From Verrucomicrobiota bacterium (GTDB lineage Bacteria; Verrucomicrobiota; Verrucomicrobiia; Limisphaerales; JANNEF01): a stretch of DNA of 64,000 nt. The translations under genes were made by a program, and so were the position numbers. The DNA is taken from assembly GCA_031378375.1 (NCBI GenBank), contig JANNEF010000313.1, positions 3,893 through 67,892 of the forward strand, in the 5' to 3' direction. The notes under the pieces are model-generated. The model did not search any database, had not been told where the DNA came from, and saw nothing but the letters and a program-made list of their open reading frames with translations. Shown piece by piece: positions 5,255-60,769 of the stretch (the first letter of the stretch is position 1; each line of letters opens with the position of its first letter).

Positions 5255-5389
5255 CAGTAGTCAGTAGTCAGTAGTCAGTAGTCAGTAGTCAGTAGTCAGT
5301 AGTCAGTAGTCAGTAGTCAGTAGTCAGTAGTCAGTAGTCAGTAGTCAGTAGTCAGTAGTCAGTAGTCAGTAGTCAGTAGGTCAGTAGGT
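5255..5389. repeat. heptanucleotide microsatellite: (CAGTAGT)x17 perfect, then 2x CAGTAGGT
   Basis: Counted directly. 17 uninterrupted 7-nt units span 5255-5373, followed by two 8-nt variants at 5374-5389. Located in the purH/phoU intergenic region. Confidence 0.97.
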
Positions 5390-5423
5390 CAGTGAACCCG
5401 CGCCGGCACCCGTCGCACCGCCG

Positions 5424-5531: not shown

Positions 5532-6239
5532 TTGGGGCAACGAATTTTTATCGCTGTGCCCGCTCATCTGGAAACTGAACTTGCTGCGTTGAAGGAAAAC
5601 TTGATCGTCATGGCCAGCCATGCCGAGGCGGCGGTCAATCGCGCCGTCAAGGCGCTCATCAAACGCGATGACGATCTCGCCCGGCAGACCAAGGAGGAGG
5701 ACAGCGTGATTGACCGGCTGGAGATCGAGATTGACGAGGCGGCCATCGCCTTGTTGAGCCATCAGCCGGCGGCGACGGACGTGCGGCTCATCACGATGAC
5801 GATGAAGATCGCGCACGACCTGGAGCGCGTGGGCGACGAGGCGACGACGATTTCGCGGCGTTGCCTGGCCTTGAGCCGCGAGCCGCAGCTCAAGCAGGCC
5901 GCCAGCATCCCGCGCATGGCGGCGCTGGCGGTGCAGATGTTGAAGGACGCGCTGGATGCTTTCGTCCACCGCGACCCGGCCCGGGCGCGCGCGGTGATCC
6001 CGCGTGACGAGGCGGTGGACGCGTTGAACAAGCAGATGCGCCGCGAGCTGGCGGCGTGCATGGCCGCGCAGCCCGCGACCATCGGGCGGTGCCTGGACTT
6101 GATGGTGATTTCCAAGAGCGTGGAGCGCATCGCCGACCACGCCACGAACATCGCCGAGGAAGTGGTTTACCTGTGCGAAGGGCGCGACATCCGCCATGGC
6201 GGCAAGAAGGCCAAGGCCGCCACGCCCGCCACGACTTGA
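5532..6239 (+). CDS. phoU: phosphate signalling complex protein PhoU
   Basis: 235 aa. Duplicated PhoU repeat with DLERVGDEA and SVERIADHATNIAE motifs. TTG start at 5532; GTG at 5556 is an alternative. Confidence 0.9.
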   Translation: MGQRIFIAVPAHLETELAALKENLIVMASHAEAAVNRAVKALIKRDDDLARQTKEEDSVIDRLEIEIDEAAIALLSHQPAATDVRLITMTMKIAHDLERVGDEATTISRRCLALSREPQLKQAASIPRMAALAVQMLKDALDAFVHRDPARARAVIPRDEAVDALNKQMRRELAACMAAQPATIGRCLDLMVISKSVERIADHATNIAEEVVYLCEGRDIRHGGKKAKAATPATT

Positions 6240-6249
6240 AGCTCCTGTT

Positions 6250-6933
6250 ATGAAACAAAAAATCCTCGTGGTGGATGATGAGCCGGATGCGGTCGAACTC
6301 ATCGCGTTCAACCTGAAGGCCGCCGGTTATGACGTGGTGACGGCCGACGACGGGGCGGTCGCGTTGAAGAAGGCGCGCGCGGTCCTGCCCGACCTCATCA
6401 TCCTGGACCTGATGTTGCCGGAGGTGGACGGGTTGGAGGTGTGCAAGATCCTCCGGCGCGATCCGCAGACTTCGGCGATCCCGATCCTGATGCTCACGGC
6501 GAAGGTGGCGGAGATTGACCGGGTGCTGGGGCTGGAACTGGGCGCGGATGATTATGTGACGAAGCCGTTCAGCCCGCGCGAGCTGGTGCTGCGCGCGAAG
6601 CGGTTGTTGCGCGGCGCGCAACCGGCCGAGGCGGTCCGCGACCACATCGTCTGGAAGGAATTGACCGTGGATGTTCCCAAACATCTGGTCACGGTGAAAG
6701 GCAAGCCGGTGGATCTGACGGTCACGGAGTTCAAGCTGCTGACCGTGCTGGTGCAGCGGCGCGGGCGCGTGCAGTCGCGCGATCAGTTGCTCCGCGACGT
6801 GTGGGATTACGAGAACGTGATGGACACGCGCACGGTGGACACGCACATGCGGCGCTTGCGCGAGAAGATCGGACCGGCGGCCAAATACCTGGATACGGTG
6901 CGCGGCGTGGGCTACCGCTTCGTCGAGGAGTGA
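6250..6933 (+). CDS. phoB: OmpR/PhoB-family response regulator
   Basis: MKQKILVVDDE...DLIILDLMLPEVDG...KPF receiver domain plus a winged-helix C-terminus (VDTHMRRLREKIG...VRGVGYRF). Lies between phoU and a PhoR-like kinase. ATG at 6250 chosen over the 6196 ORF start. Confidence 0.9.
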   Translation: MKQKILVVDDEPDAVELIAFNLKAAGYDVVTADDGAVALKKARAVLPDLIILDLMLPEVDGLEVCKILRRDPQTSAIPILMLTAKVAEIDRVLGLELGADDYVTKPFSPRELVLRAKRLLRGAQPAEAVRDHIVWKELTVDVPKHLVTVKGKPVDLTVTEFKLLTVLVQRRGRVQSRDQLLRDVWDYENVMDTRTVDTHMRRLREKIGPAAKYLDTVRGVGYRFVEE

Positions 6934-6950
6934 GGGCCGGAGACCAACCG

Positions 6951-8072
6951 ATGCGTGACGCGAACCAATCGGAGTGCGAGCGGTTGCGCGCGGAACTGGC
7001 CGCGTTGCGCGACCAGCACGAGCAGGCCACCGCGCAAATCCAGGCGCAACAGCAGGCGCTTTTCAACAGCATGGCCGAAGGCGTTCTCGTACTCGACGCC
7101 GCCGGGCGCATCCTGCTGGTCAACCAATCGCTCGAACGGCTCTTCCGCCTCACGTCGGACGTGCGGGGCCGCACCATCCTCGAAGCCTTCCGCCTGCGCG
7201 AACTGGCCGAACTCGCGGCCCGCCTCCAACAGGAACGCATGGTCAGCGGTTGTGAACTTGAACTGCCGGGCGTGGACGAACGCTGGCTGGAGGTCAACGC
7301 CGCCGCCGTGCTCGACCGCGCCGGCGCGCATCAGGGCGCGATCCTGGTGTTCCACGATCTGACGCGCCTCAAGCAACTGGAGAACACGCGGCGGGAATTC
7401 GTCGCCAACGTCAGCCACGAACTGCGCACGCCGCTCTCGCTCATCAAAGGCTTCGTGGAAACGCTGCTCGACGGCGCGAAGGACGACCCCGCCACCGCCA
7501 CGCGCTTCCTGCAAACCATCGAGAAGCACGCCGACCGCCTGACGTATCTCATCGAGGATTTGCTGACCATCTCCCGGCTGGAGAGCGGTCGCATCGTGTT
7601 GAACCTGCAACCCGTCGAGTTGCGCGCGGAAGCCCAGCGCGTGCTCGATGATCTCCAGGCACGCGCGGCGGAGAAACACATCACGCTGGAGAACCTGCTG
7701 CCCGCCGGCCTGTCCGCCCGCGCCGATGCGGACCGGCTCGAACAGGTGTTGTTCAACCTCGTCGAGAACGCCCTCAAGTACGGCGCGCCCGCGGGCCGGG
7801 TGCAACTCGGCGCGCGTGCGCGGGCGGAGGGCGGCGTCGAGTTGTGGGTGCGCGATGACGGGCCGGGCATCCCGGAGGAGGCGCGCGAGCGCATCTTCGA
7901 GCGGTTCTATCGCGTGGACCGCGCCCGCTCGCGCGAAACCGGCGGCACGGGGCTGGGGTTGGCCATCGTCAAGCACATCGTCCAGGCGCACGGCGGCGAA
8001 GTGTGGGTGAAGAGCGAACCGGGCCACGGCGCGACCTTCTATTTCACGCTGCCACAGTCGGGGCGGGGTTGA
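6951..8072 (+). CDS. phoR: PAS-domain sensor histidine kinase, PhoR-like, apparently soluble
   Basis: H-box FVANVSHELRTPL, N/G1/G2 boxes (NLVENALKYG, DDGPGIP, GGTGLGLAIVKH), an upstream PAS-like segment and an N-terminal coiled coil. No hydrophobic TM segment seen. ATG at 6951. Confidence 0.85.
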   Translation: MRDANQSECERLRAELAALRDQHEQATAQIQAQQQALFNSMAEGVLVLDAAGRILLVNQSLERLFRLTSDVRGRTILEAFRLRELAELAARLQQERMVSGCELELPGVDERWLEVNAAAVLDRAGAHQGAILVFHDLTRLKQLENTRREFVANVSHELRTPLSLIKGFVETLLDGAKDDPATATRFLQTIEKHADRLTYLIEDLLTISRLESGRIVLNLQPVELRAEAQRVLDDLQARAAEKHITLENLLPAGLSARADADRLEQVLFNLVENALKYGAPAGRVQLGARARAEGGVELWVRDDGPGIPEEARERIFERFYRVDRARSRETGGTGLGLAIVKHIVQAHGGEVWVKSEPGHGATFYFTLPQSGRG

Positions 8073-8139
8073 ACGGAAACAGCCAGCGACCGACGCCCCC
8101 GGTGTCAATTCCACGCCGCAAAATTCCCGGAAAACGCGC

Positions 8140-8168
8140 TTGCAATCAATCCCCGCTTCGCCATACTC
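8140..8168 (+). promoter_or_regulatory. possible sigma70-type promoter (TTGCAA-N17-ATACTC)
   Basis: TTGCAA at 8140-8145, a 17-nt spacer, then ATACTC at 8163-8168. Weak -10 element. It faces into an 826-bp gene-free gap. Confidence 0.25.
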
Positions 8169-8348
8169 GCCACGTTCTCCATAATGGTTTTGCGCAGGTG
8201 AAAAGGTCTTGCGCAGCGGGCAAGGGTGCGGCAGATGAACGATTCAAGTTTTCAATCTCCCAACGCCATCCAACCTCAACCGAGGTTTGGCGCAGCGCCA
8301 CCGACACGCCCGCACACTCCCGGCCTTCGCGCCCTGAACCGCCGGATG

Positions 8349-8410
8349 TTTGTAGTCCCACCTTTAGGCGGTTGGAGGGCCGTGATTCCGCCTGAAGGCG
8401 GGACTACAAA
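8349..8410. repeat. REP-like palindromic element (tttgtagtccc...gggactacaaa)
   Basis: 23-nt arms at 8349-8371 and 8388-8410 are near-complementary, with a 16-nt loop. Confidence 0.85.
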
Positions 8411-8432
8411 CGGCGAACCACCCAGCCAGACC

Positions 8433-8728
8433 GATGCTTTCGGTTCTGCCAACCCCATCCTGCCCGGACGGACTGCCACTTTCGGACCCGAAAGCCCCAT
8501 CCGGCTGAACAGGACCACCTCATTCGGTACCGAAAGCCAGTTCCGCCAGGTCAGAATGCCTCTTTCAGACCCGAAAGCCTCATTCCCCCTGGACCGGACG
8601 CCACTTTCGGACCCGAAAATGCCATTCCGCTTCACCGGAACGCCACTTACAGAACCGAAAATGCCATTCCGCCACGCCAGTCTGCCACCTTCGGCCATGA
8701 AAATCAGCACCTTACGCAAAAACCATGG
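8433..8728. repeat. degenerate ~42-bp tandem array (6-7 units), each with a TTTCGG-ac-CCGAAA-type palindromic core
   Basis: Unit anchors at 8476, 8516, 8559, 8601, 8643 and 8685, with a weaker one at 8433. Both cores and inter-core segments are homologous between units. Confidence 0.8.
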
Positions 8729-8821
8729 TTTTCGCACTTTCGATGTAAGTGAAAATGCTCAAAAAACGCCACTTTTCCCATCCCAACTTGAAACCAGAAA
8801 CTAGAAACCAGAAACTTCCCC

Positions 8822-8867
8822 TCCCCACTGACCGACTGACTCACTGATTACTGACCTACTGATTACT
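8822..8867 (+). repeat. ACTGA-type heptamer arm, second copy
   Basis: tccccactgaccgactgactcactgattactgacctactgattact. It shares both ends (tccccactg... and ...ttactgacctactgattact) with the element at 5424-5464. It ends 31 nt before the ATG at 8899. Confidence 0.85.
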
Positions 8868-8898
8868 TCCCACTCCAACCCTTAACTCCCAACTAAAA

Positions 8899-9696
8899 AT
8901 GCCCTACCGCCGCCTCCCCAACTCCATGCCCGCCGTGCTGCGCACCCTCAAAGCCGCGCGCGACACCTACAAAAACACCCCCGTCGCCGCCGACCGCGCC
9001 ATCAGCGCCGCGCAATTTGCCCTGCTCGACGACGCGCTCCCCGCCAGCCTGCTCAACCGCCTCATCAAAGAAGCCAGCGACGTGGACCTCGCCCAAGCCG
9101 CCCAGGCCCCGCTCACCACCGCGCTGGCCCAGACCGCCGCGCGCCTGACGATGTTCGTCTCCCACTTTCATCAAGTGCTCGACCTGGGCATCTTGCGCGG
9201 CACGTTTGCCGCCGGGGCGCGTGGCTATTATGGACGCGACATCCACGCCACCACCATCCCCGACCTCTCCGACTACGACGCCGTGCAAGAAGCCGCCGAC
9301 CGGCTCACCGCCGGCGAAACCGCGCGCGGCATCGCCGAAGGCGCCGCCTACGTGCCGATGCAACTGCCCAACGCCAGCGAAGTCGCCCTGCTCGACGCGC
9401 AATTCCACACTTTGCGCAGCCAGGCCCAGGCCGCCGAAGTGCGGACCGACCGCGAACAGGAAGAAGCCAGCGCCCTCTACCCCGATGCGCAGGCGCTGGC
9501 GGTGGACATCTGCGACACCGTGGAATTTTTCTACCGCAAAGACCCGGACGCCAGCAGCCGCCGGGTGAAAGCGATGCGTTGGGGCGTGGTGTACATCTAC
9601 GAGCCGAACGAAACACCCGACCCCGGCGCCCCCGCCGGTGCCGGCGGAGCCACCGGCGGAACGACACCTACGCCGCCCCCGCCACCAACTCCCTGA
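8899..9696 (+). CDS. hypothetical protein with Pro/Thr/Gly-rich C-terminal tail
   Basis: 265-aa ORF with normal amino-acid composition, unlike the Arg/Gly/Ala-rich overlapping antisense ORF 8893..9801. No family recognised. Confidence 0.6.
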   Translation: MPYRRLPNSMPAVLRTLKAARDTYKNTPVAADRAISAAQFALLDDALPASLLNRLIKEASDVDLAQAAQAPLTTALAQTAARLTMFVSHFHQVLDLGILRGTFAAGARGYYGRDIHATTIPDLSDYDAVQEAADRLTAGETARGIAEGAAYVPMQLPNASEVALLDAQFHTLRSQAQAAEVRTDREQEEASALYPDAQALAVDICDTVEFFYRKDPDASSRRVKAMRWGVVYIYEPNETPDPGAPAGAGGATGGTTPTPPPPPTP

Positions 9697-12570: not shown

Positions 12571-13110
12571 ATGGGCCGTGATGCGGCAGGCACGGCGTCG
12601 GGCAACGGCGCGTCCGCGCGTCCGGTGATGAGCGCCGATGGGCGCACGGTGTTGTTCCACAGTTTCGCCAGCGACCTGGTGGCGGGCGATTACAACGACT
12701 CGCGCGACGTCTTTGTGCTGCGCCTCGGCGGCGGGGACAGTGACAGCGATGGTCTGGATGATGACTGGGAGGTGGCTTACTTCGGCAACCTGGCCCGCGA
12801 CGGAACCGGCGACTTCGACAGTGACGGCGAAATGGATTCGCAGGAATTCCTCGCCGGCACCGACCCCACGAACAGCGGATCGATCCTGCGCGTGCTGACG
12901 GTCACTGCGCCGGGCAGCGGCAGCACAACCGTCCTCTGGAGCGCGGTGCCGGGGCGGAGTTATCGCGTGCAGTTCAAAGATGACCTGGGCGCGGCGGATT
13001 GGAGCGAGTTGGCCGGGACCGTCATCGCCAGCGGCACGACGGCCGGGAAGGCGGATGTCACCGCCAGCGGGCAGGTCCGGCGGTTTTACCGGGTGCTCCT
13101 GATTCCGTGA
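12571..13110 (+). CDS. truncated-looking surface protein fragment (acidic Asp-rich repeats plus FYR-ending module)
   Basis: Begins mid-motif (GNGASARPVMSADGRTVLFHSFASDL, normally internal to large beta-propeller proteins). Then DSDSDGLDDDWE...DFDSDGEMD acidic repeats. Ends RRFYRVLLIP. No signal peptide. Same frame as the preceding remnant, separated by one TGA. Confidence 0.5.
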   Translation: MGRDAAGTASGNGASARPVMSADGRTVLFHSFASDLVAGDYNDSRDVFVLRLGGGDSDSDGLDDDWEVAYFGNLARDGTGDFDSDGEMDSQEFLAGTDPTNSGSILRVLTVTAPGSGSTTVLWSAVPGRSYRVQFKDDLGAADWSELAGTVIASGTTAGKADVTASGQVRRFYRVLLIP

Positions 13111-13307
13111 AAGAGGAGGGCAGGGACGGGGTGGTTCAACCGAATACTTCCGAAGGCATGGGAGGACGGGTCCGCCTGCAGCCGTGTTCCCGCTTCACGC
13201 GCGCGAATTTATTCTGGTCCGTGAAAATAGATTTGCCCGTAACACAGATTTCACTTGCCAGTTTCGCCGGCTCACAGCATGGTTCTCACAGATCCGGAAT
13301 TTACGTT

Positions 13308-16304
13308 ATGCAAACTCGATTTCTGTTGGCGACTGTTCTTCTTGGCGCGTTGGGTCAATCTTCGCTGCTCGCGGTGGATCCGCCCCCGGCACCCCTCGTC
13401 ACAACCATCACCGTGAGCAACACCCAAAGGAAAGTGTCGTGGACGCCCTATCCGCACGCGCAACAGTATAATCTGTTGAGCGCGACGAATGTGGCCGGGC
13501 CTTACGGACCGGCGTTGCCGGGCGCCAACTCCGGCTACTCGTGGACGGGAACCAATTCGCGCCCGCGTGAATATTACCGGTTGCAGACCGTGCCGGTGGA
13601 CAGCAACAAGCTGGTGACGGCGCAAATGCTGAACCGCATGGCGTACGGTCCGACGCCGGACGAACTGGAACGCGTGCTGGCGATGGGGCCGGACGCCTAC
13701 ATCGCCGAGCAACTGGCGCCGGAGAACCTGCCGGAGCCGGGCGACAGCGTGTTCGCCTCGGTGGTCACGAATGCGAATCCTTTTGCACCGGTGTTTACGC
13801 CGACGAACGGTTGGGTGTTTGTGACGAACATCGGCACCTTGTCCAGCAACCGGCTTTACATGTACCTGCTGGCCGCCGGAGAAGGTTACATTGACGACGT
13901 GCGGCTGGTGGCGGGCACGGAGGCCGGCGTGGGGCCAAATTTCCTGGTGAACGGCGATTTCGAGTTGCCGCTCTCCAACGGATGGGCTGTGGCGGCCAAC
14001 CACATCGCTTCGGAAGTAACCAACAACCCTGCCTGCTCGGGCACGAACAGCCTGCACATGCGGGCCAATGCCGCCGGCTCGACGCTCAGTTCGTCCATCT
14101 CTCAATTCTTCCCCATCGCCATCAGCAACGGCGCACCCGCCGAACTGACCAACGGCCAGGTATGCACATTGAGCTACAGGTACTTGCCCGCCAGCAATTA
14201 CGCGAGCGTGACGCTCCGGCTTTCCGGCAACGGAGTATCAAGCACGGGCGGGCCGCTGGCCCCGCCGAAGCCGGCGACGTGGGTTTATTTCACGATGACC
14301 GGTCCAGGCACGACGTCTGGATCCTCCCCGACACCCACGATTTATCTTTACCTGAGCCAAGCGGGCATCCGAGAGGGATGGGTGGATGACATGAAACTCG
14401 TCGCGGGCACCGTGCCGGAGGCGGGAGCGAACCTGCTTGTAAACGGTAGTTTTGAGCAGCCGCTGACCACTGGCTGGACGGTTTCGTCGAACCTGTCAGG
14501 CTCCGAAATCACGACGAACATCTCGCGCTCAGGCGTCAGCAGTTTGCACCTGGTTTCCACCAGCGCCGGGAGCACGCTGGAAAGTTCCATCTACCAGACC
14601 AATCTGCCATTGACGGTCAACTCCATTTACACACTGAGTTTCTGGTACCTGTTGACCCCCGAAGGAGCGTTGCTCGACTCGGATGATTTCACCGCCCGGC
14701 TGGGCGGCAGCGGCATCAACCGCGTTAGCACGGCACCAATTGTAAACTTGGAAACCCGTGATGGCAGCCTTTCGGACTTGCGCGGATGGTTTTGCCGCAA
14801 TGCGGTGGAATCCAAACGACAGCTCCTGGAGGTCTTGTCCCAGTTCCTGGAAAACCATTTTGTCACCCAGTATTCGAAGCTCCAGGAATACATGGCCAAC
14901 AACAACAACAACACGCCGCGAGCCGGGATCCTGGCGGCGGACTTGGAATACCGCGAGATGAAGAAGTGGCGGCAGAAGCTGCTCGACCCGCTCTGCACGT
15001 TCCGGGATTTGTCGCTCATCAGCGCCGAAAGCCTGGCCATGATCATCTACCTCGACACGGTTGGCAGCAAGGGTAACGGCAGCAACATTGCCAACGAAAA
15101 CTACGCGCGTGAGTTACTCGAACTGTTTTGCAACGGCGTGGACAACGGCTACGATCAACAGGACATCATCCAGTTGTCCCGCTGTTGGACCGGCTGGTCG
15201 GGGCAGATTGTGGACGAGGCGAACATCAACAATCCCTTCGCACCGAAGACGACCCTGCCGATTGTGCCCGGTTCGACGGTCAACTCCAATCTGGCAGGTG
15301 TCTGGACCTTCAACTACAAGCAGGCCGACCATTACACCGGCGCCAAAGTCCTCTTTCCCGCCACGAACCACGTCGTGCCGATGCGCTTTGCGACCGCCTC
15401 GCCCCTGGCCGGGCAGACCTATCAACTAAATATCCCCGCCCGCACGGGCACCAACGGCATTCAGGACGGCTATCAGGTCATTGATTACCTGGCAGACCTC
15501 CCGTTCACGCAGGAATACATCAGCGTGAAGTTGTGCCGGCTGTTCGTGCATGACGACTTCGAGCACAATGTGTACGACTACAACAGCCCGAATCTCTCGG
15601 ATGAAGGCAAGTTGATCAAGCAGTGCATGTTGACCTGGAACGCGGGCAGTCCCAAAGGCCAGATTCGGCAGGTGCTCAAGACCATCTTCGATTCAGAACT
15701 CTTTCGCATGCATGCCGGGTCGCTGCAAAAGATCAAGACGCCATTTGAGTTTGTGGCGAGTTCCATCCGCTCCATGCGCGCAGTCAAGGCCGACGGCACC
15801 TACACTGCAACCACCTCCGGTGGCACCAGTTCATTCCAGGATCCAATGAACCGCATGGGGACCATGTTGCTTTTTGATCGCGACGCGCCCGATGGTTACC
15901 CCGAAACCGCGCCGTTTTGGATTAATGCCGGCAGCCTGGCCGAGCGCTTGCGCTACGTGCAGTCGCTGTTGCATTCCAGCAGCGGTCGCCCCTCCGACGC
16001 CGGCAGCAGCACGACCGACCCGGTCGCGCTCTTGCAGCGCAAGATCACCGATTCGGCCCAGTGGCGGAATGCAGGCGCGGTCGCAGACTTCTTCCTGGGC
16101 ATCCTCTATCCCGCCGAAGGCGCGGCCAACTTGAACCTCTACCGTCAGTCAGCAATGAACTTCCTCAACACGGCGGATGACGGCGTCACAGCATCGCTAT
16201 TCAGCGGCCTGACGGTCAGCGCCACCGCTGGAAGCACTTATGACACGCGCGTGCGCGGCATGGTGGCCATGCTGATGACTTTCCAACGCTTCCAGGAGCA
16301 ATAA
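13308..16304 (+). CDS. DUF1800 family protein with ~490-aa N-terminal extension (FN3-like module + two CBM4/9-like domains)
   Basis: Sec signal MQTRFLLATVLLGALGQSSLLA. Two LVNG(D/S)FE...GW...S(L/S)H(M/L) jelly-roll-like repeats. DUF1800 core motifs ENHFVTQYSK and NENYARELLELFCNGVDNGYDQQDI. Start trimmed from 12999 to the ATG at 13308. Confidence 0.85.
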   Translation: MQTRFLLATVLLGALGQSSLLAVDPPPAPLVTTITVSNTQRKVSWTPYPHAQQYNLLSATNVAGPYGPALPGANSGYSWTGTNSRPREYYRLQTVPVDSNKLVTAQMLNRMAYGPTPDELERVLAMGPDAYIAEQLAPENLPEPGDSVFASVVTNANPFAPVFTPTNGWVFVTNIGTLSSNRLYMYLLAAGEGYIDDVRLVAGTEAGVGPNFLVNGDFELPLSNGWAVAANHIASEVTNNPACSGTNSLHMRANAAGSTLSSSISQFFPIAISNGAPAELTNGQVCTLSYRYLPASNYASVTLRLSGNGVSSTGGPLAPPKPATWVYFTMTGPGTTSGSSPTPTIYLYLSQAGIREGWVDDMKLVAGTVPEAGANLLVNGSFEQPLTTGWTVSSNLSGSEITTNISRSGVSSLHLVSTSAGSTLESSIYQTNLPLTVNSIYTLSFWYLLTPEGALLDSDDFTARLGGSGINRVSTAPIVNLETRDGSLSDLRGWFCRNAVESKRQLLEVLSQFLENHFVTQYSKLQEYMANNNNNTPRAGILAADLEYREMKKWRQKLLDPLCTFRDLSLISAESLAMIIYLDTVGSKGNGSNIANENYARELLELFCNGVDNGYDQQDIIQLSRCWTGWSGQIVDEANINNPFAPKTTLPIVPGSTVNSNLAGVWTFNYKQADHYTGAKVLFPATNHVVPMRFATASPLAGQTYQLNIPARTGTNGIQDGYQVIDYLADLPFTQEYISVKLCRLFVHDDFEHNVYDYNSPNLSDEGKLIKQCMLTWNAGSPKGQIRQVLKTIFDSELFRMHAGSLQKIKTPFEFVASSIRSMRAVKADGTYTATTSGGTSSFQDPMNRMGTMLLFDRDAPDGYPETAPFWINAGSLAERLRYVQSLLHSSSGRPSDAGSSTTDPVALLQRKITDSAQWRNAGAVADFFLGILYPAEGAANLNLYRQSAMNFLNTADDGVTASLFSGLTVSATAGSTYDTRVRGMVAMLMTFQRFQEQ

Positions 16305-16310
16305 AAAAAT

Positions 16311-18002
16311 ATGCAACACATCAATCTCATCACACGGCGCGGTTTTTTGGACCGCAGCATGAAAATTGGGCTGGGCGTCACCCTGTCCACGATGGTGGAC
16401 GTGCCCTTCGTCCTCAAGCGCGCGCTGGCCGAAGGCAACATCGGCCTCAATGGCAAGAAACTGCTCTTCATCTGGCTGCGGTTTGGCAACGACTCGCTAA
16501 ACTCCGTAATCCCGGTCGAGGATCCCGGTTATCTCACCATGCGCCCGGTCGCGACGGGTGGATCGCCTGCGAACATCGGCATTCCCAAGGATCCCGGCAC
16601 CACCTACACGGACCGTGGGGCTTGTGACTTCCCGGTGGCCGGCACGGGGCCAACATTCGGCTACGCCAATGCCATCCGATTGGGCAACGGCTACGCGGGC
16701 TTGCATCCCTCGCTGAAGTTCCTCGCGCCCGTTTATAACGCCGGCGACCTCTCCATCATCCATCGCGTTGGCTATGCGAACCAGTCGCGCTCCCATTTCG
16801 ATTCCCAAATTTACTGGGAGAACGGCAATCCGCGAAACAACGTCTCCAAGGACGGCATTCTTTATCGGACGATCTACGAAGCCATTCAGGCCTCGCCCAC
16901 CGTGGCCAGTCGTGCGCTGACGGGAGTTTCCATTCAAACCACGCTGCCGTTGCTGCTGCGCGGCAAAGACGCGGCCATGACCAATCTCTCCGATGTCACT
17001 CGTTACGATTTGTTGAACGTTCCCAATTCGCTGAACACGAATCTGGTGACCAAGGCGGACATGGCGTTGACGGGTGCCAATGCGTATCCGTTCCCGGAGA
17101 AGGCGCAGCGCGAACTGCTTCAGGGGCAATATCAAAACCTGATGAACACGCTGCCCTTGTTCAAGGATATTGCGGCGGATCTCGCCACCCCGGTGCTTGA
17201 TGATGAAGCCACCGATGGGGATTATCCTTACAACCTCTTCCCGACCTCCAATAATACCAACGGCGGCTACGTGCGCGGAGGCGGTGCCCCTCCGGAAGCC
17301 GCCAAGTATGTCGTGCCCACCGACTCCTATTCTTTCTTCACCAAGCTCAAGGCGGCGGCGCTTGTGTTGAACAAGACCGAGGCCACCATCGCCGGTACCG
17401 AATACGGCGGGTTCGACACCCATTCCGCCCAGGGAGGAGTGACTGGTGCCCATTCCGATCTTAACCGACGCCTTGGCTGGTCGCTCTACGCGCTGCGGAA
17501 GTATTTCATGGCCCACTCAGACCAAGTGACGTGGGACAATCTGGTGGTGGTGACGCTCTCGGAATTCGGCCGCACCACGCGCGTCAACTCGGACTTCGGC
17601 ACCGACCACGGCGAAGCAGGCGTAATGTGGGTTGCTGGCGGCGCGGTCAAAGGGTTTGTCCCTGGCGCCGGTGCCAACCCGCCTGTTCGCTCCGGCGTTA
17701 TTGGCTGCCATGGCACGGCTGAACCTACGCGCGATCCCATTCCGTGGATACCGGGCACTGGGTCGAGTTCGTCCATGCTTGCCGTCGAAGGATCTTATCT
17801 CAAGCGAACGGCGGATTACAGATCGGTCATGGGCGAAATCATCCGGGAGCACCTTGGCGCGACCCAGGCACAATTGGATCGGATCATTCCCGGCTACGCG
17901 GATGAGGCGAATCACCATCTAAAGAACGGCGGCACAGTGGTGCCTCCAATCGAGAGAACCAACTACAACACGCAGATCCGGGGCGAACTGGACGTCGTCT
18001 AA
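16311..18002 (+). CDS. DUF1501 (sulfatase/alkaline-phosphatase-fold) protein with Tat signal
   Basis: Twin-arginine motif TRRGFL. DUF1501 C-terminal motifs GGFDTHS, LSEFGRT, FGTDHGEAG. 6 nt downstream of its DUF1800 partner. Confidence 0.9.
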   Translation: MQHINLITRRGFLDRSMKIGLGVTLSTMVDVPFVLKRALAEGNIGLNGKKLLFIWLRFGNDSLNSVIPVEDPGYLTMRPVATGGSPANIGIPKDPGTTYTDRGACDFPVAGTGPTFGYANAIRLGNGYAGLHPSLKFLAPVYNAGDLSIIHRVGYANQSRSHFDSQIYWENGNPRNNVSKDGILYRTIYEAIQASPTVASRALTGVSIQTTLPLLLRGKDAAMTNLSDVTRYDLLNVPNSLNTNLVTKADMALTGANAYPFPEKAQRELLQGQYQNLMNTLPLFKDIAADLATPVLDDEATDGDYPYNLFPTSNNTNGGYVRGGGAPPEAAKYVVPTDSYSFFTKLKAAALVLNKTEATIAGTEYGGFDTHSAQGGVTGAHSDLNRRLGWSLYALRKYFMAHSDQVTWDNLVVVTLSEFGRTTRVNSDFGTDHGEAGVMWVAGGAVKGFVPGAGANPPVRSGVIGCHGTAEPTRDPIPWIPGTGSSSSMLAVEGSYLKRTADYRSVMGEIIREHLGATQAQLDRIIPGYADEANHHLKNGGTVVPPIERTNYNTQIRGELDVV

Positions 18003-51167: not shown

Positions 51168-51216
51168 GTGCCGGAGTAATCAGTGGGTCAGTAATCAGTG
51201 AACCAGTTGTCAGTCG
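51168..51216 (-). repeat. ACTGA-type heptamer arm, third copy (reads gacgactgacaactggttcactgattactgacccactgattact on the minus strand)
   Basis: It occupies the whole 49-nt gap between the isomerase stop (51217) and the FucU-like start (51167). Orientation relative to the downstream start codon is the same as at 5424 and 8822. Confidence 0.85.
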
Positions 51217-60148: not shown

Positions 60149-60769
60149 ATGAGAGTTCGTAGTCAGTGGTCAGTCGTCAGTAGTCAGGGCCTGCGCAGGC
60201 GTGGGCTGCGGACTACGGACTGCGGACTACGGACTGGCTGCGCCTTCACGCTCGTCGAAATCATGGTTGTCGTTGCCATCATGGGCGTGGTGATGACGAT
60301 GGCCATCCCGTCCATGTGGCGGAAGCTGCACCCTGAATCCATGCAGAAAGCCGTCTCGGACATGATGGAGGCGTGCAGCCACGCGCGGGCGAACGCGATT
60401 TTGGGCGGCGTGATCACCGAACTGGTCGTCCGTCCCTACGACCGGCAAATCAGCGTCCACGCCACCGGCAGTGCCACGGCGGATGATTCGCCATATGGCG
60501 GAGGAGACGCACCGCCATCGCCGAAATCAGGAGGCGGTGGGGAGGGTTTTTCCTTCCGCGTGGCCGAGAACATCATGATCGAAGGGATCCGGTTGAACTT
60601 GGAGGACTGGACGGAGGACGAGGAGGTGCGCGTGCGTTTTTATCCGAATGGAACGGCGGATGAGTTCAGCATTTTTTTCGTTTCGGACAAGGCGGAGCGA
60701 CGGCAGATTTTTCTGGAAGTGACGACGGGGCTCGCGGATCTGGAGTCGGATCCGCTAAAATTCAGGTGA
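60149..60769 (+). CDS. pseudopilin with prepilin-type N-terminal methylation motif (GspH-like), unusually long leader
   Basis: AFTLVEIMVVVAIMGVVMTMAIPS motif begins at codon 32-33. The only in-frame start upstream of it is the ATG at 60149. C-terminus is GspH-like (RVRFYPNGTADEFSIFF). Confidence 0.8.
   Translation: MRVRSQWSVVSSQGLRRRGLRTTDCGLRTGCAFTLVEIMVVVAIMGVVMTMAIPSMWRKLHPESMQKAVSDMMEACSHARANAILGGVITELVVRPYDRQISVHATGSATADDSPYGGGDAPPSPKSGGGGEGFSFRVAENIMIEGIRLNLEDWTEDEEVRVRFYPNGTADEFSIFFVSDKAERRQIFLEVTTGLADLESDPLKFR
60158..60236. repeat. heptamer-repeat inverted pair: (GTNGTCA)x4, GC spacer, (CGGACTR)x4
   Basis: cgtagtcagtggtcagtcgtcagtagtcag (60158-60187) and cggactacggactgcggactacggactgg (60209-60236). 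gtagtc and gactac are complementary. Same heptamer family as 5255-5373. Confidence 0.8.

Follow-up and report, generated by a model that had tools for sequence, protein, structure and literature searches.

The window analyzed here was a 64-kb stretch of DNA; its locus is denoted W, and L-numbers denote the other loci that were compared. The ORFs scanned against Pfam between 3.6 and 18 kb comprised purH, phoU, a phoB-like gene, a phoR-like gene, MPY, an SBBP propeller, a DUF1800 gene and a DUF1501 gene, and the array locus thus has a chromosomal context (purH, phoUBR). Between the phoR-like kinase (6801-8072) and the 265-aa ORF at 8899 lies a gap of 826 bp, which an earlier, sequence-only reading had described as gene-free; that description was upheld. 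The features of the gap and of the adjoining MPY gene are collected in Table 1.

Table 1. Positions of the array, its units and palindromes, and the flanking features (numbering of the window).
Feature	Position	Strand	Remarks
Promoter-like region	8119..8185	+	left edge of gap; consensus match, putative function
REP/REPIN-like inverted repeat	8348..8411		24-nt arms, 92% complementary; contains GTAG; repeat search
42-nt tandem array	8409..8725	+	GCCAC register
Degenerate spacer of first unit	8409-8432
Units	8433-8474, 8475-8516, 8517-8557, 8558-8599, 8600-8641, 8642-8683	+	8517-8557 is 41 nt
Terminal variant unit	8684-8725	+
Palindrome A core	8438-8451		TTTCGGTTCTGCCA
Palindrome A core	8480..8493		TTTCGGACCCGAAA, perfect
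Palindrome A core	8522-8535		ATTCGGTACCGAAA
Palindrome A core	8563-8576		TTTCAGACCCGAAA
Palindrome A core	8605-8618		perfect
Palindrome A core	8647-8660		TTACAGAACCGAAA
Palindrome A core	8689-8702		CTTCGGCCATGAAA
Palindrome B, best copy	8624..8639		TTCCG-CTTCAC-CGGAA; consensus CATTCCG-N6-CGGAATG, weaker in other units
Terminal variant unit + tail box	8690..8724	+	TTCGGCCATGAAAATCAGCACCTTACGCAAAAACC
G-poor, C/A-rich tail	8726..8898	+	up to start codon; GC skew -0.50
MPY gene	8899..9696	+	265 aa (MPYRRLPNS...); conserved partner of array

A repeat search recovered one family of seven 42-nt copies (8409 to 8709; 60-76% identity to the reference copy) with start-to-start steps of 42, 42, 41, 42, 42 and 42 nt, and Tandem Repeats Finder reported a period of 42 at 8453-8618, 8469-8670 and 8598-8680. 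The phased palindrome array proposed in the sequence-only reading is therefore real, and its anchors had been placed correctly to within 1-2 bases; its unit lengths (40, 43, 42, 42 and 42) must be replaced by the steps given above, and an additional unit is present at 8433. A TTTCGG-NN-CCGAAA-like core occurs in five of the seven units, where TTTCGGNNCCGAAA was matched with two or fewer mismatches (at 8480, 8522, 8563, 8605 and 8647); degenerate cores are also found at 8438 and 8689. Elsewhere in the 64 kb, TTTCGGNNCCGAAA had five scattered matches, each with two mismatches. The centers of palindromes A and B are ca. 21 nt apart, and the stretch 8600-8646 folds into a hairpin A and a hairpin B. 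The G+C content of the array region was 49-65%. Both the pattern search and a covariance model (R1, trained on 70 units from 11 loci) identified the array as the sole such locus in the window. Matches to the model with E<0.05 were confined to the array, a result that is partly built in, six of the window's own units having been used for training.

Five tails (W, L044, L050, L049 and L046) were aligned, and the tail box TTCGGCCATGAAAATCAGCACCTTACGCAAAAACC was the best-conserved stretch of the gap. Sigma-54, ECF and Bacteroidetes-type promoters were considered for this box by eye, and none fitted. A degenerate half-unit (ACGCCACTTT, 8766-8775) lies in the G-poor tail, as do short tandem repeats (7-15 nt; 8785-8816 and 8827-8867). 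By eye, the MPY ATG is not preceded by a Shine-Dalgarno-like sequence.

MPY had 271 homologues, the best 120 of which were 56-100% identical; the organism names among the matches listed were only Verrucomicrobia and Limisphaerales. The protein had no family match in Pfam, NCBIfam, PHROG or PADLOC. Its AlphaFold2 model was all-helical (pLDDT 91), and no significant sequence or fold match was found in the PDB, DNA-binding proteins included.

The sequence-only reading had named relatives as a place to look for the array. Homologous arrays of 3-15 units were found there upstream of the MPY orthologue in eight of the eight other gene-linked loci with recovered upstream DNA (L039, L044/45, L046, L047/48, L049, L050, L054/55 and L056/57). 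The MPY proteins of these loci are 64-76% identical to that of W. The orientation of the array is constant, the C-rich strand being the MPY coding strand in all nine loci, and the upstream neighbors differ (phoR, ispD, dnaN, an E2 acyltransferase, a 3-keto-disaccharide hydrolase, ugd, a PemK/antitoxin pair and amt). Four contigs from four samples agreed in the length of the gap before MPY. Because the same kind of array precedes MPY in many related Verrucomicrobia, it is a real conserved element; this conserved, fixed-orientation linkage is the key fact beyond the first reading of the locus.

Across the loci, the step between units was 42 nt in 58 of 65 cases, 41 nt in four and 43 nt in three. 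The best-conserved columns of the unit were C9 and C14-C15-G16 (92-98%), the only ones above 90%. In many units, and throughout the arrays of L047, L050 and L054, the left arm has given way to another sequence; whole arrays in relatives carry CTGGCAATCCCGCCAA or CCGGCCATCCCGCCGG in place of TTTCGG..CCGAAA. The terminal modules of the arrays are conserved (GAGAC-WTTCG-GTCACAC or a CTTACGCAAAAA box), and each array has its own loop sequences (AC in W, CC in L033, TC/TT in L029).

Scanning of genomes with a two-core pattern yielded 37 loci, two of which (L029 and L033) were true relatives, and one of six loci from a metagenome scan was true. Among the further loci whose sequences were read, L004 was a chance match in coding sequence, and L008 and L018 were two-copy palindrome pairs; the rest (e.g. 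10 in one Pseudonocardiaceae MAG) were discarded by taxon and multi-locus pattern. The strict form of the pattern was found at one locus in each of two Verrucomicrobia MAGs. L029 and L033, both from Verrucomicrobia, have well-formed arrays with the terminal hairpin of the family, and by eye their tails look related; no MPY lies within 8 kb. The L029 array is situated between convergent genes. No similar sequence was present in 72,556 plasmid or 50,697 phage records, viral searches were empty or gave chance matches, and a search of Rfam 15 (cmscan, E<=10) returned only chance microRNA and pseudoknot matches. A literature search found no description of the element. The array is a conserved, lineage-specific, non-coding element absent from Rfam, and it adds a previously undescribed element to a poorly studied clade, the soil and freshwater Verrucomicrobia.

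At the left edge of the gap, A-tracts (AAAATTCCCGGAAAACGCGC, 8120-8139) are followed by TTGCAA (8140-8145), a 16-nt spacer and CATACT (8162-8167); another promoter candidate, TCGCCA-16-CATAAT (8158-8185), overlaps this one. A promoter scan gave one site on the + strand and none on the - strand, compared to 0.2 expected. This stretch aligns with CAAAATTCGGGAAAAAAGTC-TTGACG-16-GATACT of L044, and the A-tract region upstream of the -35 element is common to both loci. A TTGAC(A/G/T) hexamer was found at the matching place in L044, L046, L047, L049, L054 and L056. Seven loci have candidate sigma-70-like promoters on the + strand with -35 hexamers of the TTGAC type and spacers of 16-17 nt, located 100-380 nt before the array. 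As judged by eye, terminator-like hairpins with U-runs, belonging to the upstream gene, precede the candidate promoter in L056 and L047. In base composition, the skew of the 150 nt before the array had a mean near zero (range -0.36 to +0.22); an excess of C over G sets in with the array (-0.12 to -0.31), is stronger in the tail (-0.29 to -0.61) and persists in the MPY coding region (-0.11 to -0.35).

Pairing was assessed over the aligned units. With the arms in register, 57% of cells were paired, as opposed to 30-48% when the partners were slid. Compared to shuffles, pairing was 57.0% vs. 53.6%, and the covariation score was 0.187 vs. 0.143, a value reached by none of 500 shuffles. The sequence-only reading had put forward covariation as a check; hairpin B had almost none beyond the consensus. 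Stem variants that keep the pairing include UUUCGG/CCGAAA, UUUCCG/CGGAAA (L056), CUGUCGG/CCGACAG (L046), UGGC/GCCA and CCGGC/GCCGG, and perfect 11-bp stems occur in L039 and L046. G·U pairs were not enriched over the column-shuffled expectation on either strand, and the folding z-scores of 11 arrays showed no consistent strand preference; these results count against an RNA, since an RNA selected on one strand should show such a preference. In W, the - strand folds better than the + strand (z of -3.7 vs. -2.0). A strand call from G·U versus A·C mismatches was abandoned, as the raw surplus of A·C (73 vs. 15, + strand) vanished after control for column composition.

The likeliest function of the array is the control of MPY. 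Our best reading, which is put forward tentatively, is that the array belongs to a transcribed, multivalent leader RNA and acts as a cis element within the MPY transcription unit. In its favor are the linkage to MPY in fixed orientation, the promoter-like sites before the array, the C>G skew, the in-register pairing and the stem variants that keep it, the non-coding nature of the array and the constant gap length in four samples. Transcription would start on the + strand at the sigma-70-like promoter (~8140-8167) and enter MPY after crossing the array and the G-poor tail, so that the leader would measure ~0.7 kb. Each 42-nt unit would form two short hairpins in the RNA: hairpin A (CUUUCGG-NN-CCGAAAG, or UGGC-AAUCCC-GCCA in variant units) and hairpin B (AUUCCG-loop-CGGAAU), with C-rich single-stranded stretches (YCCCG, ACCCCA) between them. 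A trans-acting factor that sets the expression of MPY could then bind the 3-15 units as a multivalent platform. This factor would most simply be an RNA-binding regulator of the invariant C-rich motif or Rho, the latter because a long, C>G, untranslated leader is an ideal Rho loading site. Array growth and the upkeep of the register may have proceeded by whole-unit duplication and gene conversion.

Rho-loading rut leaders, which are C-rich and G-poor, weakly structured and at least 80 nt long, precede, for example, rho, mgtA, corA and rpoS in enterobacteria. The putative leader of MPY would resemble them in being untranslated, several hundred nt long and richer in C than G, with dispensable short hairpins between C-rich stretches; known rut regions are not, however, built from conserved tandem units, and the link of the array to Rho is putative. 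Several observations weigh against the leader-RNA reading. L029 and L033 have arrays but no nearby MPY, and the arrays of L047, L049 and L050 fold weakly while their step is kept. Good promoter-like sites lie downstream of the array in L033 and L054, hairpin B lacks the covariation noted above, and single units of the window, taken as + strand RNA, were not more stable than shuffled ones (z of -0.95 to +0.69). Finally, the strict 42-nt register has no obvious reason at the RNA level.

The comparative sequence data do not decisively favor a multi-hairpin RNA or a DNA site array. The latter, a somewhat unlikely explanation but a serious rival, posits a phased double-stranded array in which a DNA-binding protein (a regulator, a nucleoid organizer or a centromere-like protein) reads the motif of each unit, namely the core YCCCG and its flanks, with or without the palindromes. 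The 42-bp step would amount to four helical turns and so set the units on one face of the DNA, where binding upstream of the MPY promoter, or across it, could be cooperative. This reading is a serious rival because the folding of single units is weak, neither strand is enriched in G·U pairs and the spacing is kept where hairpins have decayed: the L047, L049 and L050 arrays have weak local-fold z-scores (-0.4 to -1.4), yet their 42-nt step is exact or nearly so. The 21-bp separation of the palindrome centers, an enrichment limited to Watson-Crick complementarity with no strand preference, and a conservation that peaks in a short sequence motif instead of covering a whole stem are also consistent with DNA sites, as are the downstream promoter-like sites in L033 and L054 and the arrays without MPY (L029 and L033). 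On the other hand, stems differ among the units of one array while complementarity is kept (L046, L044), and this disfavors DNA sites because a single base-reading protein would not favor varied stems. Variant units lose the left half-site, or their loop grows from 2 to 6 nt. No gene for a DNA-binding protein is linked to the array, MPY being a helical bundle without a PDB match. The conserved promoter-like site is upstream of the array, not downstream, the C>G skew is continuous with the transcription unit, and the fixed period is also explained by whole-unit duplication and gene conversion, as the array-specific loops suggest.

A close architectural parallel for a DNA array is sopC, the centromere of the F plasmid, in which 12 tandem 43-bp units each carry a 16-bp inverted repeat bound by SopB. 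The likeness extends to the nearly equal unit size, one short palindrome per unit, the head-to-tail arrangement and a step of about four helical turns. By contrast, the units of sopC are near-identical and lie beside sopAB on a plasmid, whereas those of the array are 60-76% alike and their palindrome is dispensable in whole arrays. A sopC/parS-type partition site was rejected: the neighbors contain no parA/parB-type domains, no plasmid matched, and the core is not conserved in relatives. Iterons, direct repeats of 17-22 bp, adjoin a rep gene and are accompanied by DnaA boxes or an AT-rich stretch. These were rejected as well, given the unit of 42 bp, the G+C content of 49-65%, the absence of a rep gene nearby and the presence of dnaN as a neighbor in only one of nine loci. 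The iteron and partition readings offered in the sequence-only reading accordingly fail, there being no rep or par gene nearby and no plasmid or phage match, with the palindromic core not the conserved part.

Another explanation, which we consider unlikely, treats the array as a BOX/MIRU-like minisatellite: a modular intergenic repeat, either inert or selfish, that travels with MPY and has no function of its own. In a long, repeat-tolerant leader, slippage or unequal recombination would have multiplied a hairpin-bearing unit. The copy number of 3 to 15, the homogenization of units within arrays and the presence of decayed arrays (L049, L050, L056) agree with this origin, as do unrelated tandem repeats in the leaders (heptads in W, (CAGA)n in L054, and, in L056/L057, a 14-nt unit in 4 vs. 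5 copies) and the occurrence of the same terminal hairpin on arrays at other loci (L029, L033). Against it, the position is kept though MPY differs by 24-36% and upstream synteny is lost, and short motifs are near-invariant, with no fixed indels, despite a substitution divergence of 30-40%. Only one locus is present per 64-kb window, with one strict-pattern locus in each of the two scanned MAGs, and the gap is of equal size in four samples. Bacterial deletion bias removes useless DNA and should have purged 300-600 bp of it here. BOX elements (boxA-(boxB)n-boxC, with a boxB of 45 nt) are pneumococcal, and MIRUs are mycobacterial. Like them, the array has tandem intergenic or leader units of 40-80 nt, variable copy number, hairpin potential, a terminal module and small spurious ORFs. 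BOX elements and MIRUs are, however, dispersed in tens to hundreds of copies per genome, whereas the array family was found at a single locus in each examined stretch; it is linked to one gene family in many lineages and has an almost invariant period.

A free-standing, trans-acting ncRNA, transcribed from either strand and acting, for example, as a CsrB/RsmZ-like decoy for an RNA-binding regulator, is comparably improbable. On the - strand, each unit would present a GGA motif (GCGGAAU, CAGGAUG, CCGGAUG), and variant units would give CGGGAUUG hairpin loops. Of the 70 units, 55 had GGA where it was expected on the - strand and 40 on the + strand, and CAGGAUG, the repeat reported for E. coli CsrB, occurred in five units on the - strand and three on the + strand. 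The MPY-less but well-formed arrays of L029 and L033 would be expected of a trans-acting gene, and the better folding of the - strand in W points the same way. Nevertheless, most GGA motifs belong to a stem arm, that of palindrome B, and not to loops, the A-N-GGA context is rare, and no Csr/Rsm family of Rfam matched. A tblastn search found no csrA in the 64-kb window or the loci, no conserved promoter or terminator was found on the - strand, and the 11 arrays had no overall strand preference. The idea of a CsrA sponge was disfavored on account of the unconvincing GGA count and context and the lack of csrA in the window and loci. The array shares with CsrB and RsmX/Y/Z the many short hairpins and the recurring GGA motif (CAGGAUG in some units); it differs from them in the stem-arm location of most GGA motifs, in having no detected terminator and in its strict register, which is not a feature of Csr/Rsm RNAs.

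More doubtful still is the notion of a periodic nucleic-acid scaffold peculiar to Limisphaerales-type Verrucomicrobia, on which a protein, possibly MPY itself, assembles cooperatively with one module per unit. Were this true, the strict 42-nt register would be explained by cooperative assembly, array and MPY would constitute a self-contained nucleoprotein system instead of an ordinary leader, and the MPY-less arrays (L029 and L033) would be additional assembly sites in trans.

The weakest alternative, a proline-rich protein with 14-residue repeats encoded by the 192-aa ORF at 8226-8804 and its counterparts, is very improbable: although 42 nt equals 14 codons, most arrays leave frames 0 and 1 open and gene callers placed ORFs in L044, L045, L046 and L056, the frame of the unit differs among loci and changes within W, L033 and L044 where a unit has 41 or 43 nt. 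The translated array matched one protein, P0001, which, like the closest MPY homologue (P0003), is on a 6,858-nt contig; P0001 matches in the flanks only. A second translated array had no match among 5.8 billion proteins, and no Pfam match was obtained. Conservation did not follow a codon rhythm, and the fourfold-degenerate third positions of the two open frames are among the most conserved bases. When matched, apparently orthologous units of L039 and L047 were compared, 5-8 synonymous vs. 31-36 non-synonymous changed codons were counted in every frame. ORF lengths were as in shuffled flanks (P of 0.06-0.74). The ORFs over the array are artefacts because the 42-nt unit lacks stop codons. The sequence-only reading was right that the drawn ORFs are not genes, given the frame switches, the missing codon pattern and the shuffled-like ORF length.

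Its rejection of a CRISPR array also holds. The whole 42-nt unit repeats, inter-core stretches included, and no cas genes were present among the Pfam-scanned ORFs from 3.6 to 18 kb.

As the array is tied to a highly conserved gene without an assigned function, it provides an experimental handle on MPY, and both the array and its variable copy number are directly manipulable. It also offers a clean system for asking, more generally, whether tandem palindromes in strict phase work at the DNA or the RNA level when they lie in a bacterial leader. The array explains the repeated breaks in metagenome assemblies just upstream of MPY.

REP sequences number in the hundreds, frequently alternate in orientation and are associated with RAYT genes. 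The array resembles REP, BIME and REPIN elements as a cluster of extragenic palindromes, but its units have no GTAG head and are arranged head-to-tail at one locus. A REP-like nature was rejected: the unit is confined to the array in the 64 kb, and the Verrucomicrobia MAGs have one locus each, compared to 10 in the REP-rich Pseudonocardiaceae MAG. The REPIN-like doublet that adjoins the array is unrelated in sequence to the repeat units. It is single-copy in the window and was not seen by eye in the homologous gap of L044; it looks like an insertion into the leader, outside the 42-nt repeat family.

The 826-bp gap that houses the array separates a phoU/phoB-like/phoR-like operon (5532-8072, + strand) from the 265-aa ORF termed MPY (8899-9696, + strand). 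Tandem Repeats Finder returned a period of 42 over 8453-8680, and a repeat search placed seven in-register copies from 8409 to 8709 (60-76% identity to the reference copy). A pattern search of the 64 kb for the core TTTCGGNNCCGAAA with up to 2 mismatches located it at 8480, 8522, 8563, 8605, and 8647; the five remaining matches were scattered and at chance level, and the cores at 8438 and 8689 were more degenerate. The sequence-only reading, which had described a phased ~42-bp palindrome array at 8433-8728, was accurate apart from its unit lengths; the real spacing is 42, 42, 41, 42, 42, and 42 nt.

Related loci are designated by L-numbers, with paired numbers denoting one locus. Viterbi chaining yielded 65 unit-to-unit steps: 42 nt in 58, 41 nt in four, and 43 nt in three; the step was 42 without exception in L029, L046, L047, and L050. 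The consensus unit, GCCACTTTCGGTCCCGAAAACCCCATTCCGCCTGGCCGGAAT, features two palindromes whose centers are 21 nt apart: A (CTTTCGG-NN-CCGAAAG, extending to 11 bp in some units) and B (CATTCCG-N6-CGGAATG). The most conserved columns were C9 (92%) and C14-C15-G16 (95-98%); C24, G39, and C28 came next. In many units, including most of those in L047, L050, and L054, TTTCGG..CCGAAA was replaced by CTGGCAATCCCGCC(A/G)A or CCGGCCATCCCGCCGG; the register was unchanged in these variants, and columns 6-9 pair with 16-19, enclosing a six-base loop that ends in CCC. Other stem variants were UUUCCG/CGGAAA (L056) and CUGUCGG/CCGACAG (L046). The palindrome A loop differs by array (AC in the window, CC in L033, TC/TT in L029); this shows that units are homogenised within an array.

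When the two-hairpin structure was applied to the 70-unit alignment, 57% of the cells were paired, compared to 30-48% when the partners were shifted by 1-3 columns and to 53.6% after shuffling. Covariation, which had been proposed as a check on the array, scored 0.187 in this alignment versus 0.143 in shuffles, and 0 of 500 shuffles reached the former value. Most of the pairing support came from palindrome A, and palindrome B added little beyond its own consensus. Judged from the alignment, the complementarity of the unit is real, with modest support.

When 185,579 species genomes were scanned with a two-core pattern, 37 loci resulted; those outside Verrucomicrobia, among those read, were chance or unrelated palindrome matches. 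The search for the core in other genomes, suggested by the sequence-only reading, located homologous arrays in two Verrucomicrobia MAGs (L029, 7 units; L033, 10 units) and in L039, which was contributed by a metagenome scan and in which the array is followed by an MPY orthologue. Further loci were contigs reached through MPY homologues. In every locus with enough upstream DNA, the array preceded MPY in the same orientation, in a gap of 580-1090 bp, and the far-side neighbor was never the same (phoR, ispD, dnaN, E2 acyltransferase, 3-keto-disaccharide hydrolase, ugd, a toxin-antitoxin pair, amt). The element is real, conserved, non-coding, and part of the MPY gene unit. The MPY gene was not found within 8 kb of the L029 or L033 arrays; both retain the family terminal hairpin, GAGAC-WTTCG-GTCACAC, and by eye their tails resemble family tails. 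For an MPY variant (P0026), four contigs, each from a different sample, had upstream gaps of equal length; therefore, the array is not hypervariable there. Many short metagenome contigs with MPY (L051-L053, L055, L045, L039) end 150-320 nt before the start codon or within the array, a pattern suggestive of assembly breaks at the repeat.

Arrays, terminal modules, and other repeats in the window and related loci
Feature	Locus	Position	Description
Array	L044/45	upstream of MPY	15 units
Array	L046	upstream of MPY	9 units
Array	L047/48	upstream of MPY	8 units
Array	L049	upstream of MPY	5 units
Array	L050	upstream of MPY	7 units
Array	L054/55	upstream of MPY	3 units + terminal hairpin
Array	L056/57	upstream of MPY	3 units, decayed
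Terminal unit/box	window	8690-8724	
Terminal unit/box	L044	2836-2880	
Terminal unit/box	L050	2334-2375	
Terminal unit/box	L049	2298-2335	
Terminal unit/box	L046	2812-2850	
REP/REPIN-like inverted repeat	window	8348-8411	GTTTGTAGTCCCACCTTTAGGCGG / CCGCCTGAAGGCGGGACTACAAAC; 24-nt arms, 92% complementarity
Short intergenic tandem micro-repeats	window	5255-5393; 8785-8867; 51175-51207; 60159-60236	

Several features are suggestive of + strand transcription together with MPY. A promoter scan gave one promoter-like site in the window locus and one in L044; each lies on the + strand, at the gap's left edge. At the matching place in L044, L046, L047, L049, L054, and L056, a TTGAC-type -35 hexamer is followed by a 16-17-nt spacer; the window has TTGCAA there, and an A-tract region upstream of the -35 is common to the window and L044. 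By reading, a terminator-like hairpin and U-run of the upstream gene precede the promoter-like site in L056 and L047. A C>G skew sets in at the array, is stronger in the tail, and extends into the MPY coding region; in the 150 nt preceding the array, the skew averages near zero (range -0.36 to +0.22). The tail is G-poor and, by eye, has no Shine-Dalgarno sequence.

Our tentatively favored reading of these sequence features is that the array is transcribed with MPY as a multivalent leader RNA, which would recruit a trans-acting factor (a C-motif RNA-binding protein, or Rho) that would set MPY expression. Single window units folded no better than shuffles (z from -0.95 to +0.69), and array-level local-fold z reached significance only where the units of the array are canonical. 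Over 11 arrays, the z sums were -25 (+ strand) and -28 (- strand), i.e. without strand preference, and G·U pairs occurred at the column-composition expectation on either strand; the raw + strand excess of A·C over G·T (73 vs. 15) was compositional and was rejected as a strand signal. The 42-nt step persisted where hairpins had decayed. Together, these observations count against a classical structured RNA. Confidence in the leader model is held down mainly because it leaves the strict register and the MPY-less L029 and L033 arrays unexplained.

The same weak folding, strand symmetry, G·U frequency, and retained step are what a phased array of double-stranded DNA-binding sites predicts. However, stems vary within one array yet stay complementary, and units can do without the left half-site. 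No linked gene encodes a DNA-binding protein, and the MPY model is a helical bundle that has no significant fold match in the PDB; the register would also be kept by whole-unit duplication with gene conversion. A DNA-binding array is less likely than the leader RNA but a serious rival to it. That the array is a BOX/MIRU-like minisatellite without function is improbable, and that it is a free-standing, sponge-type ncRNA, on either strand, is about equally so.

That the array encodes a protein is very improbable. The unit is devoid of stop codons, so ORFs run through the arrays on either strand, but their length is that obtained from shuffled flanks (P 0.06-0.74). As the sequence-only reading had argued, the frame does not hold: it differs among loci and switches at 41-/43-nt units within the window, L033, and L044. 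Conservation had no codon periodicity (phase means 0.77, 0.69, and 0.86), and fourfold-degenerate third positions of both open frames were among the most conserved bases. Units of L039 and L047 that match in position and appear to be orthologous (70% identical) differed by 5-8 synonymous versus 31-36 non-synonymous codon changes in every frame. The sole protein match, P0001, is encoded on a contig equal in length to that of the closest MPY homologue and agrees with the window ORF in the flanks, not in the repeats, and a second translated array had zero matches in 5.8 billion proteins.

Covariance model R1 (70 units, 11 loci) gave E<0.05 in the 64-kb window solely inside the array (its training set included six window units), and a REP-like identity was rejected on this basis. 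The array is not CRISPR, as had been noted, because the entire unit repeats. The neighbors scanned included no par, rep, or cas genes, and no similar DNA was present in plasmid, phage, or viral collections; the iteron or partition reading offered earlier was accordingly abandoned. There was no Rfam family match, and the element appears to be undescribed because nothing in the libraries searched matched it.

The most conserved part of the gap, in five loci, is a terminal variant unit plus a box, TTCGGCCNTGAAAAYCA-N5-CTTACGCAAAAA. In a second subfamily (L029, L033, L039, L047, L054), the end is the GAGAC-type hairpin followed by CAGAAAACCAG. The terminal unit/box could act as a promoter or processing site or mark a 3' end. 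The CTTACG of the box pairs with CGTAAG or TGTAAG further downstream in the window and L044.

The inverted repeat preceding the window array is outside the array repeat family; it looks inserted into the leader because it is single-copy in the window and was not seen in the homologous L044 gap. The leaders of L039 (about 330-480) and L033 (about 1535-1680) contain unrelated REP-like inserts, and in L051 a Y1_Tnp (RAYT-type) gene lies 780 nt downstream of MPY. The P0001 protein shows good conservation of the leader start (8226-8260, translated MNDSSFQSPNAIQPQPRFGAAPPTRP) and of the post-array stretch (FRTFDVSENAQKTPL), but not of the intervening repeats; non-repeat leader parts may carry signals of their own. 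The micro-repeats include (CAGTAGT) x19.6 between purH and phoU and 7-15-nt repeats (ACTGAYY and AACTAGA types) within the MPY leader tail and at two further window sites. The tandem repeats of homologous leaders are different: L054 contains (CAGA)n, and the 14-nt GGCTCGCCGGTCAC occurs x4 in L056 and x5 in L057.

MPY (MPYRRLPNS...) has 271 homologues; the best 120 of these are 56-100% identical, and the organism names among them are Verrucomicrobia and Limisphaerales only. Searches of Pfam, NCBIfam, PHROG, and PADLOC gave no match. The AlphaFold2 model (pLDDT 91) is a bundle with two ~50-residue helices, closed by N- and C-terminal strands, for which a fold search against the PDB gave nothing better than E=0.3. 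MPY is a conserved protein that deserves study in its own right. Further downstream (12999-18002), a DUF1800/DUF1501 gene pair follows an SBBP beta-propeller gene; this pairing, which agrees with the taxonomic position of the window indicated by the named MPY homologues, is common in Planctomycetes and Verrucomicrobia.
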